A program made the translations under genes and the position numbers. Under the pieces are notes generated by a model. The model saw only the letters and a list, made by a program, of their open reading frames with translations, ran no database searches and had not been told where the DNA came from. Shown here in pieces: positions 2,151 through 47,998 of a DNA stretch of 64,000 bases (position 1 is its first letter; every line of letters begins with the position of its first letter). This stretch comes from a phage. The stretch lies in the sequence record PZ445440.1; one strand, written 5' to 3'.

Positions 2151-2721
2151 AAAAGTTTCGGATTTGTTCCCAATTCAGAGAACGAAGATTATTACGAGAG
2201 TACTGAATTACTTCAATACCAGCTTGTTTAAGAATGTCTGTCCAATTTTCAGGAGACCGGTCATATAATTCTGCATATACAACCTTTTTAATGCCTGACT
2301 GTGTGATAGCTTTAGTGCAATCAGGACACGGAGAAAGCGTAGTATATAACGTAGCACCTTCAATAGAATTACCTTTACGAGCAGCAAACAAAATTGCATT
2401 CAATTCCGCATGGATTTCGTTATTAGCAGACCATGCACTATGAGCGGCCCGATGTTCTTTAGCCAAAACAAAATTATCTGCCCGTCCAAATGCTGTAGTG
2501 CCTTCTTTATGCCCAGCAACGATGACCGGGCTTGGTTTATTCTTCAACCAACCTTGTTCGGTAGCATGGTCACAACAGTTTGTACCACCTGAAGGAGACC
2601 CATTATAACCCGTAGAGATAATGCGCCCATCTTTTTCAATGACGGCACCAACTTTCCATGAACAACATTTTGATTCTTGAGAAATCAAATAAGCAATTTG
2701 AAGATATGTGCTAGCTTTCAT
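2140..2721 (-). CDS. cd: dCMP deaminase
   Basis: 193 aa; zinc-deaminase motifs HAELNA...PCxxC (CDA fold); length equals T4 Cd. Confidence 0.9.
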   Translation of the reverse strand: MKASTYLQIAYLISQESKCCSWKVGAVIEKDGRIISTGYNGSPSGGTNCCDHATEQGWLKNKPSPVIVAGHKEGTTAFGRADNFVLAKEHRAAHSAWSANNEIHAELNAILFAARKGNSIEGATLYTTLSPCPDCTKAITQSGIKKVVYAELYDRSPENWTDILKQAGIEVIQYSRNNLRSLNWEQIRNFCGE

Positions 2722-3713
2722 TATTGAACCTTATTAATATAAGTTAACAGCTCTTTAGTTTGTTCCCAACTGATGCACGCATCGGTAACGGAAACGCCAT
2801 AGGACATATTATCAGAAATTTTTTGATTTCCTTCATGTAGGAATGATTCTATCATAATTCCTTTGACCAAATCATTAGCTGCTAAATTTTTACCAATACC
2901 AATTTGATTGCTATAATGCCCATCAGCGTTTGCATGGCTACAGTCAACCATTACATAATGATTCAGACCTACTGCCCTTGCTTTGTTAGAAGCTTCTTGA
3001 ATATCAGAAGAATGATAGTTCGGGCCGTTGGTCCCGCCACGCAATACGATATGCGTATTCTGATTACCTTCAGCTTCAACAATGCCTACAGTACCATCGA
3101 CGTCCATACCCATATACCGATGAGGCCAGGCGGCACTATACATCGCGTCTGTAGCTACTTTAATAGAACCATTAGTTGCGTTCTTGAAGCCTACGCACAT
3201 CGGTAGACCTGAAGCAATTTCACGATGTGTCTGACTTTCAGTCGTACGGGCGCCAATAGCAACCCATGAGAAAATACCAGAAAGATACTTAATCGTGAAT
3301 GGGTCTAATACTTCAGTTGCTAATGGAAGTCCCATACGTAGAAGTTTACGACACAATGTTCGTGCAACTATAAGTCCGTGGTTCATATCAAAACTTCCGT
3401 CAAGATATGGATCATTTACAAGACCTTTCCAACCTACGGTAGTTCGAGGCTTTTCAAAATAAACGCGCATCACTAACAGAACATTAGGAAGACGAGTTTG
3501 AAGTTCAGCCAGACGTTTGCCGTATTCAACAGCAGCAATAGGGTCATGAATTGAACAAGGACCTACAACAATAAGTTTGCGTGGGTCTTCACCGTTCATA
3601 ATCGAATTAACTTGTTCGCGATGAGAAGCCACTTGTGAGGCGTAAGCTTCCGACAAAGGAATAATCTCGGCCAGTTCTTTTGGAGAAATAAGTTTTCCGA
3701 CGACAGGTAACAT
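2721..3713 (-). CDS. 3-deoxy-D-arabino-heptulosonate-7-phosphate (DAHP) synthase, class I (AroG/AroF-like)
   Basis: 330 aa; long colinear blocks shared with recalled E. coli AroG (VVGPCSIHDP, VMRVYFEKPRTTVGWKGL, GARTTESQ.HRE.ASGL, GFKN, ILRGG, SHAN, ESHL.EGNQ, TDAC); TAAGGA RBS. Confidence 0.85.
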   Translation of the reverse strand: MLPVVGKLISPKELAEIIPLSEAYASQVASHREQVNSIMNGEDPRKLIVVGPCSIHDPIAAVEYGKRLAELQTRLPNVLLVMRVYFEKPRTTVGWKGLVNDPYLDGSFDMNHGLIVARTLCRKLLRMGLPLATEVLDPFTIKYLSGIFSWVAIGARTTESQTHREIASGLPMCVGFKNATNGSIKVATDAMYSAAWPHRYMGMDVDGTVGIVEAEGNQNTHIVLRGGTNGPNYHSSDIQEASNKARAVGLNHYVMVDCSHANADGHYSNQIGIGKNLAANDLVKGIMIESFLHEGNQKISDNMSYGVSVTDACISWEQTKELLTYINKVQ

Positions 3714-3833
3714 AACAATCCTTAGGAGATATAAACAGATTCTGATTCAACAATACCTTTAACCGGATTAGACAGGCTAAGTTGGTAGTGCTCAGATTTA
3801 TGACCATTCTCGATAGTAATGAGATAGCTCTCA

Positions 3834-4070
3834 TTATAGTGTTCCATATACTCGAGTTGCTTCAACAAGACCATCACTGCCTAATTTAAGATTAGTAATT
3901 TGGTCACCATCTTTAGGATTAACGATTATGAGAAAAGAACGTGGAGATTCTTGAATAACTCGTAATGTTGCATCTTGGAAACGTTCAGACACTTTATTGA
4001 TGAGTGCTTGAGCAAATTCTTTTACTTTAATCTGAAATTCGTGTACTGTAATTGGGTTTTCACTTAGCAT
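3834..4070 (-). CDS. hypothetical protein (78 aa)
   Basis: ORF track; preceded by early promoter. Confidence 0.5.
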   Translation of the reverse strand: MLSENPITVHEFQIKVKEFAQALINKVSERFQDATLRVIQESPRSFLIIVNPKDGDQITNLKLGSDGLVEATRVYGTL

Positions 4071-42592: not shown

Positions 42593-43018
42593 TTATTTAA
42601 ATTTAATTTTCTGAAGTGCATCAATTGCAGCCAAACGCCCTTGTTCACTTTTAACTGTAATGACCACATCGCCTGATACGATCACCGAACCATCAACAAA
42701 TTCTATAGAGCCTTTTTTGAAATCGACAGCTGTATCTGGTTCCGGAACTTCTTCAAAGAATTTAAATTCTGCACCATAAAGCAGAATATCACCTTGCATA
42801 CTATGAATAGTTCGGCCATAATCGCCTACGGCTTCTACAGCAATAACCGAAACACCGTAGCCAATCATCTCTTCCACAATAAAATCTTTGGACAATAAAG
42901 TAGTATGCAGATTAGTATTAAGACGTTTACCAGTCGTATTAAGAATTCTCAAGAAATTATCTTCCTGTCCTTTGATAATACGATATTTCTTACCAACTTC
43001 AAAACCTTTAAAAGCCAT
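42593..43018 (-). CDS. hypothetical protein (141 aa)
   Basis: ORF track. Confidence 0.5.
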   Translation of the reverse strand: MAFKGFEVGKKYRIIKGQEDNFLRILNTTGKRLNTNLHTTLLSKDFIVEEMIGYGVSVIAVEAVGDYGRTIHSMQGDILLYGAEFKFFEEVPEPDTAVDFKKGSIEFVDGSVIVSGDVVITVKSEQGRLAAIDALQKIKFK

Positions 43019-43020
43019 AA

Positions 43021-43200
43021 TTAACCCTTCTTAAGTAAATCGTAAAAACCACCGTTCACATGTTTAGGAGCAGAAACCCGACGAGTAGACATACGATGAC
43101 ATTCAGGGCAAACATCGTTTTCTCGTTCAGAAATTCTTTTAATTTTTTCATATTCATGACCACAATCTTCAGATTGGCATTTATAGTCGTATAACGGCAT
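43021..43200 (-). CDS. small zinc-ribbon protein (FmdB-like CxxC...CPxC), 59 aa, not in track
   Basis: Hand translation MPLYDYKCQSEDCGHEYE...CPECH...; tightly packed between neighbours. Confidence 0.5.
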   Translation of the reverse strand: MPLYDYKCQSEDCGHEYEKIKRISERENDVCPECHRMSTRRVSAPKHVNGGFYDLLKKG

Positions 43201-43202
43201 TA

Positions 43203-43613
43203 TTATTCCTTAAAATGTGCTTTCAACATTTGATACAAAGACCATGCCTGGTCATTATTTTTGATAGTAATCGTCATCACAGGAAATTCAGACAATTCAT
43301 CAAGTTCACCAGAATCTTGCTCTTCGGACGCTTGATATGGATTTCCAACTTCGTCAAAGAACTCTGCTTCATTCGTGGAGAGCCAGATAAAGTTTTCATC
43401 AAGGATATCACCGCCTGCTGCATATCCAACCATGCCAGTAGATGTCACAATTTTAGTAGGACGACCAAGATGGTCAACATCTAATACTTTAAATGGTTCC
43501 ATGCCAAGACGTCGTGCATAAATCCCATTATCAGTGTGGTCTTTAATAAACTCTTCTTGGGCACGTTTATCTTTAAATTGGTACCATGAGTTAACGCGGA
43601 ATTTATTAGCCAT
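43203..43613 (-). CDS. hypothetical protein (about 136 aa)
   Basis: Track ORF trimmed to Met7 whose ATG overlaps upstream stop (TAATG coupling). Confidence 0.45.
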
Positions 43614-43885
43614 TAGTAAGTTTCCTTCCAATAAGTTGTACCATTTTCAGTGATTTCACGGAAGATACCATAGATAGGCATTTCATCACCGAGTTTTTCG
43701 TAAACGTAAACCACTTCAGTGTAGCATAAAAATTCGGTCCAGTTTTTCTGTACAACAACTAAATCAGGATTAAACAGAACATCTTCAAACTCGTCGATGT
43801 TTGAATCAGTAGTTACATTTTTAATGATTTGACGTTTCATAATATTCTCCTCTTGTTTTGATAGGTCTATAGTATCATAGACCAT
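43613..43885 (-). CDS. hypothetical protein (90 aa)
   Basis: ORF track; early promoter upstream. Confidence 0.45.
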
Positions 43886-43897
43886 AGTTGTTGTACA

Positions 43898-44422
43898 TCA
43901 TTTTAGCAAAATAAAATCAACTTGTTCTGCCAATGAACGTCTAAACATTAATTGACAACTTCCGAGGATGAAATCAGGTGCTTCATAGACGGCGATGTAG
44001 TATCCTTTAGCTTTCAAGAGTTCAACATCCACCTGGTCATCAAACCATGCATAAACCGCGTCAACACTTTCAAATCCAAAATAGAACCCTTGAGCCCAAT
44101 CTTCACTCAATTCAAATGTGTGCTCAATTCTATAGTATCTTAAGATATTTTGTTCAAGGAGTTTGTCTTCATTTACTGTAGGACGATTAGGGACATTATA
44201 GTTGTCACCGTGATGGTAGAAGTTACCTGAGAGTATTCCATGCTTATCAAGGAACTCCCATGTTTCTTCAGAGTTGTCGGTGCCTGACCAACCGTATGGC
44301 GAACGAGGTTCTTTATTCCAAGAGGTTTCCCAAATTCTGACGGCTTTACCGTCTTCAATAGCAATTCCTGGTAATGATTCACGTTGAGTACAAAAACTAC
44401 GTTCTACGCGGTAAACTAACAT
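43898..44422 (-). CDS. hypothetical protein (174 aa)
   Basis: ORF track; motB-region position. Confidence 0.45.
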   Translation of the reverse strand: MLVYRVERSFCTQRESLPGIAIEDGKAVRIWETSWNKEPRSPYGWSGTDNSEETWEFLDKHGILSGNFYHHGDNYNVPNRPTVNEDKLLEQNILRYYRIEHTFELSEDWAQGFYFGFESVDAVYAWFDDQVDVELLKAKGYYIAVYEAPDFILGSCQLMFRRSLAEQVDFILLK

Positions 44423-44481
44423 ATTATTCTCCTCTGGTTGATATGGTTATAATATCAAAACCAGAGGAGAAGTAAACAACT

Positions 44482-44901
44482 TTATGCGAAAGCAGCTGGG
44501 CTATATTTTTTAATTTGGAATTCAGGAACTACCATGAACTGTCCAGCGAAAACGATGTTATAAAGCTTAACACCATCTTCTACCCAACGGTCGCTAATAA
44601 ATCCGGCGATTTGCTTAGTTTTCCATGGTGTTCCATCAGTTGCCGCAGCAATAGTGAATTCATGGTCTTTTTCAACAGAAACTGATCTGCATAGTCCCCA
44701 TTTGAACGCTTTTTCTTCTGGTTCAATGAATTGGCTTGAGACGTAGCCAATATTACCATTAGCATCACGAACTTTAACTTGGTTACGACCAAAAACCGGA
44801 TCACTCACAGAAAGAACTTCAACCAACTTCCCGGCAACTTTAGAGCGAGAAGCAACAGATACATATACGTAATCACCTGTAGAGAGATTTACAATATTCA
44901 T
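44482..44901 (-). CDS. hypothetical protein, member A of tandem paralog family
   Basis: 139 aa; shares ASRSK.AGKLVEV, KW.LC, GFISD.WVEDG.KLYNIVF motifs with next gene. Confidence 0.5.
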   Translation of the reverse strand: MNIVNLSTGDYVYVSVASRSKVAGKLVEVLSVSDPVFGRNQVKVRDANGNIGYVSSQFIEPEEKAFKWGLCRSVSVEKDHEFTIAAATDGTPWKTKQIAGFISDRWVEDGVKLYNIVFAGQFMVVPEFQIKKYSPAAFA

Positions 44902-44910
44902 AATAATTCC

Positions 44911-45375
44911 TTAAGCTTTACGAGGAGACACATAGCGAGTGATTTCAGATTCTTTAACAACTCGGAAGTCACCTAAGAATACGATATTGTATAACTTTTC
45001 ACCATCTTCAACCCATTGGTCACTAATGAAGCCACACATAGTATCAGTTTTGCTTGGATAACCGTATTCATCGATGAAGTCAAATTCTTTATCAGTCTGG
45101 AATTCAACACCTTTACACAAGGCCCATTTGAACTGTGTAGTAGGCTCAACGATATCGCTTGAAGCAAAGTGGGCACTTACACGAGTTTCCAAGAATTTAG
45201 GACTTACATAGGCGAACTGAGTTTCAGTTTTTCCAGAACTAGGAATGATTCGAACTTTAACTTCTTTAATATGGCCCATGCCATTAGTACGAAGTCCTAC
45301 TACTTCAACCAGCTTTCCTGCAGCTTTAGAACGAGACGCTGTCGATACACGTTTAATTTCACCAATATTAATCAT
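44911..45375 (-). CDS. hypothetical protein, member B of tandem paralog family
   Basis: Track ORF trimmed to Met22 (MINIGEIK); about 154 aa; paralogous to 44482..44901. Confidence 0.5.
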   Translation of the reverse strand: MINIGEIKRVSTASRSKAAGKLVEVVGLRTNGMGHIKEVKVRIIPSSGKTETQFAYVSPKFLETRVSAHFASSDIVEPTTQFKWALCKGVEFQTDKEFDFIDEYGYPSKTDTMCGFISDQWVEDGEKLYNIVFLGDFRVVKESEITRYVSPRKA

Positions 45376-45437
45376 ATTTTTTCTCTCTTTGTTTAAGTTG
45401 AATTCATTATACTCCATCCATCCTTGGATGTAAAACA

Positions 45438-45974
45438 TTAATTAAGAATATTAACTACTGCACTACGTGGAACAACACTAAAATCACCTGCATGAACAAC
45501 GTTCAGAAGTTCAACACCGTCTTCAATCCACTGGTCAGTTACCCAGCCACTTACCGGTCCAGCGAACGGACGTCGAATTGAAACAGCTTTACACAACAAA
45601 TCAGTAGGCTCAATAGGCTTAATCAGAGTACCGTACATACAAGCGATATCCATATCAATACAGATGTCTTTAACGGGTTCTACTTCTTCAATCAACAGTT
45701 CAAAGTCGGTGTTTGGAAGGGCGGTAGTAGAAATTGTACCGTATGAATTTTTAATTTCTAAGAATAACCAAGGGCCTTCAGCTTGTTTGATAAAGTTAAC
45801 AATAGTGAAACTATTACCTTGAGTGGCACCTAAAATTTCGCAAAACTTTTCATAAGCTCGCACTGAAGCGCCGTACCAGTTGATTTGTTTTTCGTCTTTC
45901 AGGATGTAAGTAGCCGTAGTATTGATATTCATAATGTTTTCCCGTTTGGTTAAGATAGAAAGATTATACTCCAA
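45438..45974 (-). CDS. hypothetical protein, member C of tandem paralog family
   Basis: 178 aa; C-terminal GWVTDQWIEDGVELLNVVHAGDF.VVP matches motif of members A and B. Confidence 0.5.
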   Translation of the reverse strand: MEYNLSILTKRENIMNINTTATYILKDEKQINWYGASVRAYEKFCEILGATQGNSFTIVNFIKQAEGPWLFLEIKNSYGTISTTALPNTDFELLIEEVEPVKDICIDMDIACMYGTLIKPIEPTDLLCKAVSIRRPFAGPVSGWVTDQWIEDGVELLNVVHAGDFSVVPRSAVVNILN

Positions 45975-45997
45975 CCATCCTTGGTTGTAAACTGGTT

Positions 45998-46675
45998 TTA
46001 TCGCTGTTTTACACTTAACGGGTCAGGATTCTCAGGGACATCTTCAAGGCCAAGCGCATAACGCTGAGCATATTTTAACATCAAAATATCTTTAGCACAA
46101 TCATGAATACTATCATGGGCAACGAATCCTTTTAGCGTACCCATCGGTAATGGACACATACTTAATCCTCGTGTCAACGAGTAAGCTTCGATTGCCGTAC
46201 GAATATCACGTTGAGCCCAGAATTTAACAGGTTCTAATTTATCGGTATCAATATCTGGTTCAAGAACACCTTCATCACGATAGAGGTCACGAATCAAATC
46301 GACTAAGATCGGGAAGTCAAAGCTCATACCACGGCACCACATCTGTGATTTCCATTGGTCAACTTTATTAGCTCGACAATAATCTAAAAAGATTTTAATG
46401 CCTTCAAGCGTAGTGACATCATCTTCAGACGGAGCCAGGTTTTTACGTGCTTCTGCTGATTGTTCTTTCCACCATTTCATAGTGGATTTAGCGAAAACTC
46501 GCTTCCCTTTCTGAGAAGCTAGATTAAATTTAATTCGCTTACCTCGTTGAACAAGTTCTTCAAATGATTCAACAACTTCAGGGTCGGAATTATATGCAAT
46601 AACCGCAAGGTCAATAACAGCCGCTTTTGATGTATTGCCGAATGTTTCAAAATCTATAATAACATCAGTGCTCAT
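45998..46675 (-). CDS. dexA: exonuclease A (DEDD family)
   Basis: 225 aa; DFETFG exonuclease motif; position upstream of dda as in T4. Confidence 0.8.
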   Translation of the reverse strand: MSTDVIIDFETFGNTSKAAVIDLAVIAYNSDPEVVESFEELVQRGKRIKFNLASQKGKRVFAKSTMKWWKEQSAEARKNLAPSEDDVTTLEGIKIFLDYCRANKVDQWKSQMWCRGMSFDFPILVDLIRDLYRDEGVLEPDIDTDKLEPVKFWAQRDIRTAIEAYSLTRGLSMCPLPMGTLKGFVAHDSIHDCAKDILMLKYAQRYALGLEDVPENPDPLSVKQR

Positions 46676-46684
46676 AATTTTCTC

Positions 46685-47998
46685 TCAAATAAAATGGACG
46701 TCAAAACGACCACGAGTTGTGCCGACATACAATAACTGTTTAGCTAATTCTGAATCGGCATAATGGATACACGGCGTATAAACAAAGGCCGTGTCAACAG
46801 ACATACCCTGGGCCTTATGGAAGGTTGATACAGGTAGTGCCTTCACCTTAGTGAACATACGTTTAGCATCCCAGAATTCGCTCCATGGGGCTTTACCACC
46901 TTTATTCCAAAATTTGTATGTTTCTGCGGTCTTAGCCAAAAACAAATTGAATTTATAAAGCTCTTCTTCAGAAGAAATAACCTTTATATCTTCGCGGATG
47001 TATTCTTCATCATCCCCATATGTTTCTACTGTAAGATTCCAGTATCGTATCATATATTCGCCTGAAACACCACGTGCTTTAACGAATGTAGACGTTTCTA
47101 CAGCATCTCGAATACGAACGAATTGCCCGTTATTGAAAAGCATTTCAGTCATATTTTTGCCATCTAGCTTGTACGTCTTAGTAAACGGCTCTTGTAGAAC
47201 AATGACTTCGTCTTTAATAAATGGTTTTTCTGTTTCAAGAAGTTTTCGGCGAATAATTGAATTTAACTTGTCCACCGACTTATTTGTGAATGCCATCATT
47301 CGATTTTCGAAAAGGTCTTCAGGAGTTTTAACGACGTTAAAATAGTTCATCATATACGATTTAAGGTCTGTATACCCATGAACACCGTGTCCATCAACTA
47401 CTTTATCGTAAATCCATTTGCCATTACGAATATCAGTCGCAACATCAATAATTGGTGCATTGCTACGTTTAACTTCTGTAAGGTTGCATTGCACGAAGTC
47501 TTTGTGAGTGAAGAAAGGACTTAGATATGCAGTTGATTCGCCTGGGTCTACCGGTCGAATCTGGCATCGGTCACCAATTCCAATTACTGTGCACCATTTA
47601 GGGATACTAGCTAACATTATTTTAAACAGAGAACGGTCGCACATTGATGCTTCATCAAATAACAGTACACGACACAAGGCTAAGTCGGGAACCTTTTTCT
47701 GTTCAAACAATACGTTTTCTTCGTATGTAGTTGGGTTGATTTTAAGAATGCTATGAATAGTCGATGCTTCTTGACCTGCAAGTTTGCTTAGAACCTTTTT
47801 AGCTGCATGTGTAGGGGCTGCTAAAATAATACCTGATTCTCCAGAAGAAATAAGGGCTTCAACGATGAATCTAGTAAGGGTTGTTTTACCTGTACCAGCA
47901 GGCCCATTAATAGTTACGTGATGTTTCTTTTCTTTAATAGCGTTCATAACAACATTGAAGGCGTTTTTCTGGCCGTCAGTCAAATCATCAAATGTCAT
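46685..47998 (-). CDS. dda: Dda DNA helicase (SF1B)
   Basis: 437 aa; near-identical N-terminus to recalled T4 Dda (MTFDDLT.GQKNAFN.VM.AIKEKKHHVTINGPAGTG). Confidence 0.9.
   Translation of the reverse strand: MTFDDLTDGQKNAFNVVMNAIKEKKHHVTINGPAGTGKTTLTRFIVEALISSGESGIILAAPTHAAKKVLSKLAGQEASTIHSILKINPTTYEENVLFEQKKVPDLALCRVLLFDEASMCDRSLFKIMLASIPKWCTVIGIGDRCQIRPVDPGESTAYLSPFFTHKDFVQCNLTEVKRSNAPIIDVATDIRNGKWIYDKVVDGHGVHGYTDLKSYMMNYFNVVKTPEDLFENRMMAFTNKSVDKLNSIIRRKLLETEKPFIKDEVIVLQEPFTKTYKLDGKNMTEMLFNNGQFVRIRDAVETSTFVKARGVSGEYMIRYWNLTVETYGDDEEYIREDIKVISSEEELYKFNLFLAKTAETYKFWNKGGKAPWSEFWDAKRMFTKVKALPVSTFHKAQGMSVDTAFVYTPCIHYADSELAKQLLYVGTTRGRFDVHFI

Follow-up and report, generated by a model that had tools for sequence, protein, structure and literature searches.

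Three consecutive minus-strand open reading frames lying next to dexA in a phage genome (sequence record PZ445440.1; the whole 64,000-nucleotide stretch analyzed is called the window here) end in a similar motif. The locus raises the question of what these genes are, how they came to stand side by side, and whether they diverge under diversifying selection, as the original prediction supposed for host takeover or anti-defense factors. Between positions 44000 and 46500, the window is 100% identical to Escherichia phage ChristianSchoenbein (MZ501056, BASEL Bas46), a Mosigvirus (RB69-like) of the Tevenvirinae, and 93 to 98% identical to many further mosigviruses. The locus is very probably a MotB-family cassette of an RB69-like Mosigvirus. 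The gene trio is already known: Pfam, PHROGs, and RefSeq product names reflect its paralogy, and the arrangement, which is that of RB69, has been published.

Every gene at the locus is on the minus strand, and the order of transcription is dda (46685-47998), dexA (45998-46675), ORF3 (motB.1), ORF2 (motB), ORF1 (a second motB), a 174-aa ORF (motB.2), cef, and goF. Because the genes are on the minus strand, transcription passes dexA first, and the trio lies downstream of it, not upstream as had been claimed. ORF3, the MotB.1 orthologue, occupies 45438..45932 (164 aa plus stop; the same ends are annotated in MZ501056), ORF2, the MotB orthologue, 44911..45375 (154 aa plus stop), and ORF1, the second MotB copy, 44482..44901 (139 aa plus stop). 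The MotB.2 orthologue (174 aa, 43898..44422), downstream of the trio, provides context and is not a paralogue. The three predicted ORFs are real, but two had been given overlong starts: TTG at 45974 (ORF3) and ATG at 45438 (ORF2) extend the frames across promoter-like sites. The corrected starts, at 45932 for ORF3 and 45375 for ORF2, align with T4 MotB.1 and MotB, respectively, and are the same in the RefSeq annotation of APCEc01.

The shared C-terminal motif (GFISDRWVEDGVKLYNIVFAGQFMVVP in ORF1, GFISDQWVEDGEKLYNIVFLGDFRVVK in ORF2, and GWVTDQWIEDGVELLNVVHAGDFSVVP in ORF3) is present in all three proteins, as first described, and exceeds chance by BLASTP, shuffling, and Pfam. The similarity remained significant in pairwise and profile alignments: ORF1 and ORF2 align over their full length with 43% identity (BLASTP E = 4e-32), while ORF3 aligns with ORF1 (E = 7e-11) and ORF2 (E = 4e-10) over the C-terminal ~35 to 57 residues only. 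The corresponding Smith-Waterman z-scores were 43.5, 15.8, and 15.0, and none of the 2000 shuffles reached the observed score. The Pfam family PF17613 "motB" (gathering score, 25 bits) matched ORF1, ORF2, and ORF3 with 75.6, 139.1, and 35.7 bits, respectively, all above the gathering score; the match spans profile positions 2 to 157 of 162 in ORF2 and is restricted to the C-terminal part in ORF3. Comparison of two family alignments by hhalign gave a probability of 99.7% (E = 6e-26), with two bridging sequences common to both alignments. PHROG 1671, "MotB-like transcriptional regulator," matched ORF2 (1.5e-65), ORF1 (6.6e-51), and, by its C terminus, ORF3, which in turn matched PHROG 2333 over residues 1 to 164 (8.8e-83). 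An NCBIfam search returned nothing. These BLASTP, shuffle, Pfam, PHROG, and hhalign statistics make it hardly conceivable that the similarity reflects chance or low complexity. The notion that the ORFs are not genes at all is opposed, in addition, by the conservation of all three, with ω (dN/dS) well below 1, in each of 8 related phages, the interrupted motB.1 of RB69 being the exception.

The family core G[FWY][IV][ST]D[QR]W[IV]EDG..L.N.V is found in all three ORFs and, within the trio, narrows to G[FWY][IV][ST]D[QR]W[IV]EDG.[KE]L[YL]N[IV]V. In 31 MotB-type sequences its D, W, E, G, L, N, and V residues never vary, and the same is true of DQW.E.G.ELLNVVH in 28 MotB.1-type sequences. The additional motifs ASRSK(V/A)AGKLVEV and KW(G/A)LC, predicted to occur in two of the ORFs, are indeed present in ORF1 and ORF2. 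Likewise, a SRSKAAGKLVEV motif in the KOW-like N-terminal domain and an FKW.L hairpin are found in ORF1 and ORF2 but not in ORF3, which shares just its last ~57 residues with the other two proteins and has an N-terminal domain unrelated to theirs in sequence.

The proposed local triplication is therefore right in that the three genes are true paralogues, but it is not a simple triplication: ORF1 and ORF2 form a tandem pair, and ORF3 shares the C-terminal domain only. By sequence, ORF1 and ORF2 are assigned to MotB proper (Category 1, PHROG 1671) and ORF3 to the MotB.1 subfamily (PHROG 2333). The former two are products of one old tandem duplication; in ORF3, a MotB.1-type protein, the common C-terminal domain is attached to a different N-terminal domain. 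A similar picture was drawn from 102 homologues, which were sorted into four categories with a common C-terminal domain and differing N-terminal domains, and motB and motB.1 were proposed to stem from duplication (Patterson-West et al. 2021, PMC7827196). In a neighbor-joining tree of the C-terminal domains (calculated without support values), a MotB-type clade carrying a ~19-residue hairpin insertion is separated from a MotB.1-type clade, and the ORF1-type and ORF2-type sequences form separate long branches. Synonymous sites of the C-terminal core are saturated between paralogues (pS, 0.7 to 0.8), so the duplications are old and have not been followed by recent gene conversion. We rejected gene conversion between the paralogues on these grounds and because the nucleotide identity of the C-terminal core is only 51 to 63%. 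We also considered the 174-aa ORF as a fourth paralogue and rejected it: it is an orthologue of T4 MotB.2 (34% identity, E = 1e-15; phrog_1106) that has no significant similarity to ORF1, ORF2, or ORF3 and no Pfam match. Some database records label four or five "transcriptional regulators" at this locus.

Structural models suggest a common plan for the trio, in which a flexible linker connects a small N-terminal β-barrel to a conserved barrel of five strands at the C terminus. In ORF2, a basic KOW/SH3-like N-terminal domain (residues 1 to 62; net charge, +7) is connected by a disordered linker (residues 63 to 81) to the C-terminal barrel (residues 82 to 154; window positions 44914-45132, minus strand). 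Its AF2 model (pLDDT, 82.9; ~89 to 96 in the C-terminal domain) places the N-terminal strands within residues 7 to 57, disorder at residues 66 to 78, and a confident barrel, with a long first hairpin, at residues 89 to 149. The two-domain plan is repeated in ORF1, where the linker is very short and the C-terminal domain comprises residues 67 to 139 (44485-44703, minus strand). In ORF3, an acidic LSm-like/SH3-like N-terminal domain (residues ~1 to 84) and a disordered linker containing a DMDIACMYGTLIKP mini-module precede the MotB-family C-terminal domain (residues 108 to 164; 45441-45611, minus strand); the AF2 model (pLDDT, 80.2) consists of an N-terminal sheet with one helix, a disordered segment at residues 86 to 104, and a five-stranded C-terminal barrel at residues 116 to 163. 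Kim et al. 2025 (PMC12152347) grouped the MotB.1 N-terminal domain with GoF and Frd.2 in a family of LSm-like folds; the LSm/SH3 type is a bent sheet of five strands.

The models further suggest that the N- and C-terminal domains are SH3-like barrels rather than OB-folds, the C-terminal domains being modeled as Tudor/KOW/chromo-like; an earlier HHpred analysis had assigned the MotB C-terminal domain to a cold-shock-type OB-fold, a five-stranded barrel of the kind seen in CspA and the eIF5A C-terminal domain (Patterson-West et al. 2021, PMC7827196). Structural matches in BFVD were to MotB-family proteins from T4-like phages of Escherichia, Klebsiella, Yersinia, Serratia, and Enterobacter, and a sequence-profile search of the PDB found no related entry. 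Charge is distributed unevenly over these domains. The net charge of the N-terminal domain is +7 in ORF2, +5 in T4 MotB, and no more than +2 in ORF1. As a group, the C-terminal domains range from neutral to acidic, although those of T4 MotB (+2) and ORF1 (+1) are slightly basic. ORF3 is acidic throughout (pI 4.5; net charge, -9).

Of the known relatives, T4 MotB is the closest guide to ORF2, which is its positional and sequence orthologue with a full-length Pfam match. ORF2 is only 49% identical to T4 MotB (E = 1e-45) and ORF1 only 37%, which counts against transferring properties from T4. ORF1, ORF2, and T4 MotB all combine a basic SRSKAAGKLVEV N-terminal domain and a flexible linker with a C-terminal FKW.L...G[FY]I[ST]DQWVEDG.KLYN.VF core; in both phages, motB is preceded by an early promoter and belongs to the early region bounded by dexA and cef. 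Unlike T4, the window has two tandem copies, and in one of them, ORF1, the linker is nearly absent and the N-terminal domain weakly charged. ORF3 is 38% identical to T4 MotB.1 (E = 3e-27); their C-terminal domains are ~88% identical and both genes immediately precede motB, but the T4 protein lacks the extra ~20-residue linker module of ORF3 (IDMDIACMYGTLIKP). Whereas ORF3 is intact at 164 aa, motB.1 is annotated as 119 aa in the T4 reference as a result of a one-base insertion that is absent from 13 other T4 records and is probably a sequencing error. The position of motB.2 differs as well, between dexA and motB.1 in T4 but downstream of the trio here.

RB69 has been described with a similar arrangement: its locus (RB69p010 / motB / RB69p012 / motB.1) has the same gene order and ~95% nucleotide identity, and the RefSeq order is motB.2, "MotB-like," motB, a 29-aa ORF, motB.1, and dexA. 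The counterpart of ORF1 is RB69p010, annotated as "MotB-like transcriptional regulator." The published description of this phage lists two motB genes and one motB.1, together with a 29-aa peptide that corresponds to the C-terminal core (PMC7827196). In the RB69 reference, two extra T bases split motB.1 into a 132-aa ORF and the 29-aa ORF, whereas the window has one 164-aa ORF.

An early-type σ70 promoter-like site (TTTACA-17-TATAAT, 11/12) is located directly upstream of ORF3 (45963..45991, minus strand), and a second one with the same elements and score begins 4 nt past the ORF3 stop (45406..45434, minus strand). GTTTAC-N17-TATAAT occurs twice in the window, against 0.07 matches expected. The two sites are part of a 66-nt repeat (45369-45434 and 45926-45991; 76% identity) that includes promoter, 5' untranslated region, and start codon. 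ORF1 starts 9 nt past the ORF2 stop with an AAGGA Shine-Dalgarno sequence of its own and no visible promoter of its own; on account of this spacing and missing promoter, it is presumably cotranscribed with ORF2. The predicted consensus early-type promoters would thus serve motB.1 in one case and motB with its second copy in the other. No terminator was found between the genes of the trio, and Rfam had no match over 43000-47000. The T4 motB promoter and early motB mRNA are documented experimentally, RegB cutting the mRNA in its GGAG Shine-Dalgarno sequence (PMC1702504), and T4 MotB is an abundant early protein (PMC7827196). We infer early expression in the phage studied here.

Selection on the trio was assessed from Nei-Gojobori dN/dS over nine phages, with orthologues from eight, namely, six mosigviruses and the tequatroviruses GiZh and Sf23. 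Diversifying selection had been suggested; the gene-wide values are those of purifying selection, with medians of 0.15 for ORF1, 0.22 for ORF2, and 0.12 for ORF3, compared with 0.06 for each of dexA, cef, and motB.2. Gene-wide constraint on the trio is thus somewhat relaxed, with no sign of diversification. Within ORF2 (N-terminal domain, 0.31; linker, 0.43; C-terminal domain, 0.13) and ORF3 (0.15, 0.24, and 0.07, respectively), constraint is strongest on the C-terminal domain, while ORF1 is about even along its length (0.16, 0.14, and 0.17). Among mosigviruses, the ORF2 N-terminal domain exists as two very different allele types, one of which (SIQLKEGVKDEDSE) is like T4 MotB; since the raised dN/dS of this domain coincides with the two types, it indicates recombination rather than scattered adaptive changes.

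Copy number was compared by tblastn with the 57-aa C-terminal domain, which matched at 1685 places in 781 phage records. Among the matches listed, three copies occur in mosigviruses and some tequatroviruses (RB7, REP1, and Ac3; also GiZh and Sf23), two in T4 and most T4-like phages, and one in Klebsiella, Enterobacter, and Edwardsiella phages. The homologues of ORF1 and ORF2 in GiZh and Sf23 have ~85% nucleotide identity to the window (pS, ~0.4), dexA and cef of the same phages only 66 to 69% (pS, >0.7), and Sf23 carries a near-identical ORF3; these differences show an exchange of the cassette between phage genera. Variability at the locus is a matter of recombination, allele swapping, and copy-number change, not of an excess of dN. 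The C-terminal domain itself recurs in diverse contexts: MotB.1-type versions that are 76 to 88% identical are found in proteins of 143 to 250 aa whose N-terminal domains vary, some being doubled and some of the KOW type, and a stretch of 122 to 128 nt within 45429-45556 matches T4, T6, and RB32 at 86 to 88%, with flanks that do not match. We considered the C-terminal DNA as a recently exchanged recombination anchor and dropped this as a general claim: relative to the T4-type gene of GiZh, pS is 0.63 and pN 0.11, and protein-level constraint therefore explains most of the C-terminal conservation.

That no function is known is true of MotB.1 and of the second MotB copy, whereas MotB is partly understood in T4. 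T4 MotB is toxic to E. coli when overproduced, binds DNA nonspecifically, copurifies with H-NS and StpA, and increases burst size 2-fold (PMC6070864). It is made from ~1 minute after infection, binds host DNA and modified phage DNA with no sequence preference, and copurifies with H-NS and StpA through DNA (PMC6070864; PMC7827196). It also alters the H-NS footprint and leads to upregulation of 75 host genes, about one-third of them in the H-NS regulon, and DNA binding by either domain has been considered possible (PMC7827196). Deletion of T4 motB.1 leaves growth normal, and MotB.1 had no effect on RNA in a reporter assay (PMC12152347). An involvement in host takeover, as suggested for the locus, fits the published properties of T4 MotB as an early, abundant, toxic, DNA-binding protein that copurifies with H-NS and StpA and doubles burst size. 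T7 gp5.5 and T4 Arn, with which MotB shares a proposed early relief or remodeling of H-NS-bound DNA (PMC7827196), are comparable in the way they work and not as family members: they bind H-NS directly, whereas MotB associates with H-NS only through DNA, and neither is related to MotB in sequence or fold.

By orthology to T4 MotB, the best-supported reading is that ORF2 and ORF1 act like the T4 protein, for which alone DNA binding, H-NS effects, and toxicity have been demonstrated. They would be synthesized within minutes of infection, coat DNA irrespective of its sequence, and shift the placement of H-NS (and StpA) on it, turning the cell into a better host. Judged by charge alone, DNA binding would reside mainly in the basic KOW-like N-terminal domain. 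The DNA affinity of ORF1 may differ from those of ORF2 and T4 MotB, since its N-terminal domain carries only +2 as opposed to +7 and +5. The MotB.1 orthologue, in which the same C-terminal module follows an acidic LSm-like domain, probably has a different activity exerted via the same C-terminal contact; the charges suggest that the common C-terminal domain may have another shared purpose. We consider this explanation as a whole, a MotB-family cassette with MotB-like action of ORF1 and ORF2 and a different activity of ORF3 through the C-terminal module, highly likely.

Other explanations of the cassette emphasize its variability or its duplicated gene. The paralogues could be anti-defense or host range factors kept diverse by positive selection in an arms race. 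Copy number does vary from 1 to 3 among related phages, two very different MotB N-terminal alleles circulate in mosigviruses, the cassette has been swapped between genera, dS at ORF1 and ORF2 (0.2 to 0.67) exceeds that of the flanking genes (0.07 to 0.15), ω of the trio is 2 to 4 times that of dexA, cef, and motB.2, and the region is dispensable in T4 (PMC1702504, PMC7827196). However, gene-wide ω stays at 0.12 to 0.22 and is at most 0.43 in any domain, with its lowest values in the shared motif of ORF2 and ORF3, and the raised value in the ORF2 N-terminal domain coincides with a recombinant T4-like allele. The anti-defense idea found no link either: PADLOC-DB models did not match the trio at E ≤ 0.1, and there was no anti-defense report in the literature searched. 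We regard an arms race as quite unlikely. Alternatively, the second MotB copy could add dosage, simply providing more of an abundant DNA-coating protein and having no role of its own. ORF1 has the domain plan of ORF2 and shares its operon, T4 requires MotB in large amounts (PMC7827196), and a single MotB copy is enough for T4 and most T4-like phages among the matches listed. Redundancy is difficult to reconcile with two proteins that are just 43% identical, saturated at synonymous sites, and each under purifying selection (ω, 0.15 for ORF1 and 0.22 for ORF2). In addition, little is left in ORF1 of the linker and of the N-terminal positive charge, a loss that points to a diverged function. Dosage is, in our estimate, an unlikely explanation of the second copy.

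A further possibility concerns the C-terminal domain, which could be a docking or oligomerization module rather than a DNA binder, tethering basic KOW and acidic LSm-like heads to one partner or to each other in a mixed assembly, with MotB.1 perhaps modulating MotB. The acidic D-x-W-x-E-D-G core is nearly invariant and is maintained, within domains that are 76 to 88% identical, in proteins of 143 to 250 aa that differ in their N-terminal domains; ORF3 as a whole, with its pI of 4.5 and net charge of -9, is unlike a nucleic acid binder; and the genes are adjacent and predicted to be coexpressed. The Tudor/KOW/chromo-like fold modeled for the C-terminal domains is frequent in protein recognition, but SH3-like barrels also bind nucleic acids, and the C-terminal domains of T4 MotB and ORF1 are slightly basic. 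On nonreducing gels, T4 MotB.1 runs as monomer and dimer, yet no MotB.1 homomultimer was predicted with confidence by AlphaFold3 (PMC12152347), for which the T4 input was probably the truncated annotation. Such docking is conceivable but doubtful in our view, and we are equally tentative about the more specific proposal that the conserved barrel is an SH3/Tudor-like adaptor, not a DNA-binding OB-fold, onto which interchangeable heads (basic KOW, acidic LSm-like, and tandem 180- to 250-aa versions) are docked. If the adaptor proposal were true, the three proteins would join in a mixed complex at the nucleoid, and exchange of heads on an unchanging adaptor would be the means by which T4-like phages diversify their takeover of the host.

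The observation of a related gene trio is correct and statistically secure, and it adds little in itself, as both the family and the arrangement are known. Its value lies in a clean, intact example of motB.1, the T4 and RB69 reference genes both being interrupted inside the most conserved motif of the family. Studies of MotB.1 that rely on the 119-aa annotation would miss roughly half of the shared domain, its ~28 final residues, and experiments are better begun with the intact 164-aa gene or the 143-aa T4 version. Ideas on which domain of the MotB family binds DNA may also shift in view of the models, in which the barrels are SH3-like and not OB-like, and of the acidic character of MotB.1.

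The T4 reference sequence encodes a shortened MotB.1. A single extra G causes its motB.1 to stop at 119 aa, the final residues before the stop codon being GWVTDQWIGRWR (NC_000866.4, 2720-2880, minus strand, corresponding to window positions 45441-45560), and the adjacent frame encodes the remainder of the conserved domain, EDGVELLNVVHAGEYSVVPRSAVVAILN. Among the T4 records compared, the extra base is restricted to AF158101/NC_000866; the gene encodes 143 aa without it in 11 other T4 records and in RB55 and RB59. Records lacking the extra G include T4T, KJ477684-6, MT984581, OL964735/45, OZ..., and MZ375356. The extra G is probably a sequencing error in the reference. MotB.1 was given as a 13.8-kDa protein of 119 aa by Kim et al. 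2025 (PMC12152347), with no mention of a truncation.

The RB69 reference motB.1 is also interrupted: relative to the window, two extra T bases divide it into an ORF of 132 aa and the 29-aa ORF RB69p012 (NC_004928, 2110-2300, minus strand). RB69p012 is the peptide that Patterson-West 2021 (PMC7827196) placed in "Category 3". No such split occurs in the window or among the remaining mosigviruses examined, where motB.1 is a single, undivided ORF of 163 to 164 aa. A further annotation issue concerns the start of the MotB orthologue, which is placed at an upstream ATG in the GenBank annotation of MZ501056 (bas46_0111, 528 nt) and in several other records, extending the gene over window 45376-45438. 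This ATG falls within a promoter-like site; RefSeq APCEc01 and the alignment with T4 support a start at 45375.

We also found a potential regulatory structure just upstream of the start of the MotB.2 orthologue at 44422. On the minus strand, positions 44427-44471 can fold into a strong hairpin (-25.5 kcal/mol, z = -5.0), the 3' arm of which contains the MotB.2 Shine-Dalgarno sequence, GAGGAG. The 5' arm is overlapped by a promoter-like site on the same strand (44476..44449; TTTACT-16-TATTAT with TG), its -10 hexamer lying in and beside the loop. In read-through transcripts, the hairpin would be expected to mask the MotB.2 ribosome-binding site; in transcripts initiated at the internal promoter, the 5' arm would be missing and the site exposed. 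A hairpin-hidden ribosome-binding site combined with an internal promoter resembles the arrangement at some other T4 genes. The ribosome-binding regions of cef and the MotB.2 orthologue (window 43838-43863 and 44420-44471, respectively) are near identical over 20 nt, the corresponding plus-strand stretches being CATAATATTCTCCTCTTGTT and CATATTATTCTCCTCTGGTT. As a result of this likeness, the 5' arm of the MotB.2 hairpin also shows 95% complementarity with the Shine-Dalgarno region of cef, at a distance of 589 nt.

Proteins of the MotB family appear modular. The linker of ORF3, the MotB.1 orthologue, contains a short module, DxD[IV]A.MYGTL[IV]KP (residues ~85 to 107; window 45612-45680; compared with proteins P0029-P0060), which is disordered in the AF2 model. 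T4-type MotB.1 lacks this module; KOW-type single-copy proteins, such as that of Enterobacter phage ZX14, carry it in the linker. In relatives of 160 to 250 aa, it precedes the N-terminal domain that adjoins the C-terminal domain: it is found at the N terminus in the 160- to 183-aa forms, and in the ~250-aa forms it separates the two N-terminal domains. Three proteins from metagenome assemblies (P0148, P0149, and P0151) are chimeric MotB proteins, in which the N-terminal domain and the linker are of the ORF2 or T4 MotB type and the C-terminal domain, or its tail alone, is of the ORF1 type. Unequal recombination between the tandem motB copies would yield such chimeras; they could also be assembly artefacts.

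Gene order differs between the genera. motB.2 adjoins cef in mosigviruses (window 43898-44422) but dexA in T4 (NC_000866.4, 3162-3662) and in the tequatroviruses GiZh and Sf23, placing it on opposite sides of the MotB cassette; the dda-dexA interval of mosigviruses lacks dexA.1 and dexA.2. At 2506-3975, both GiZh and Sf23 have the second MotB copy as well as a motB of the Mosigvirus type, with ~85% nucleotide identity to the window, and Sf23 additionally has a near-identical motB.1. Since the flanking dexA and cef genes of these two phages are only 66 to 69% identical to the window, the sequence comparison indicates that the MotB cassette has been exchanged between genera.
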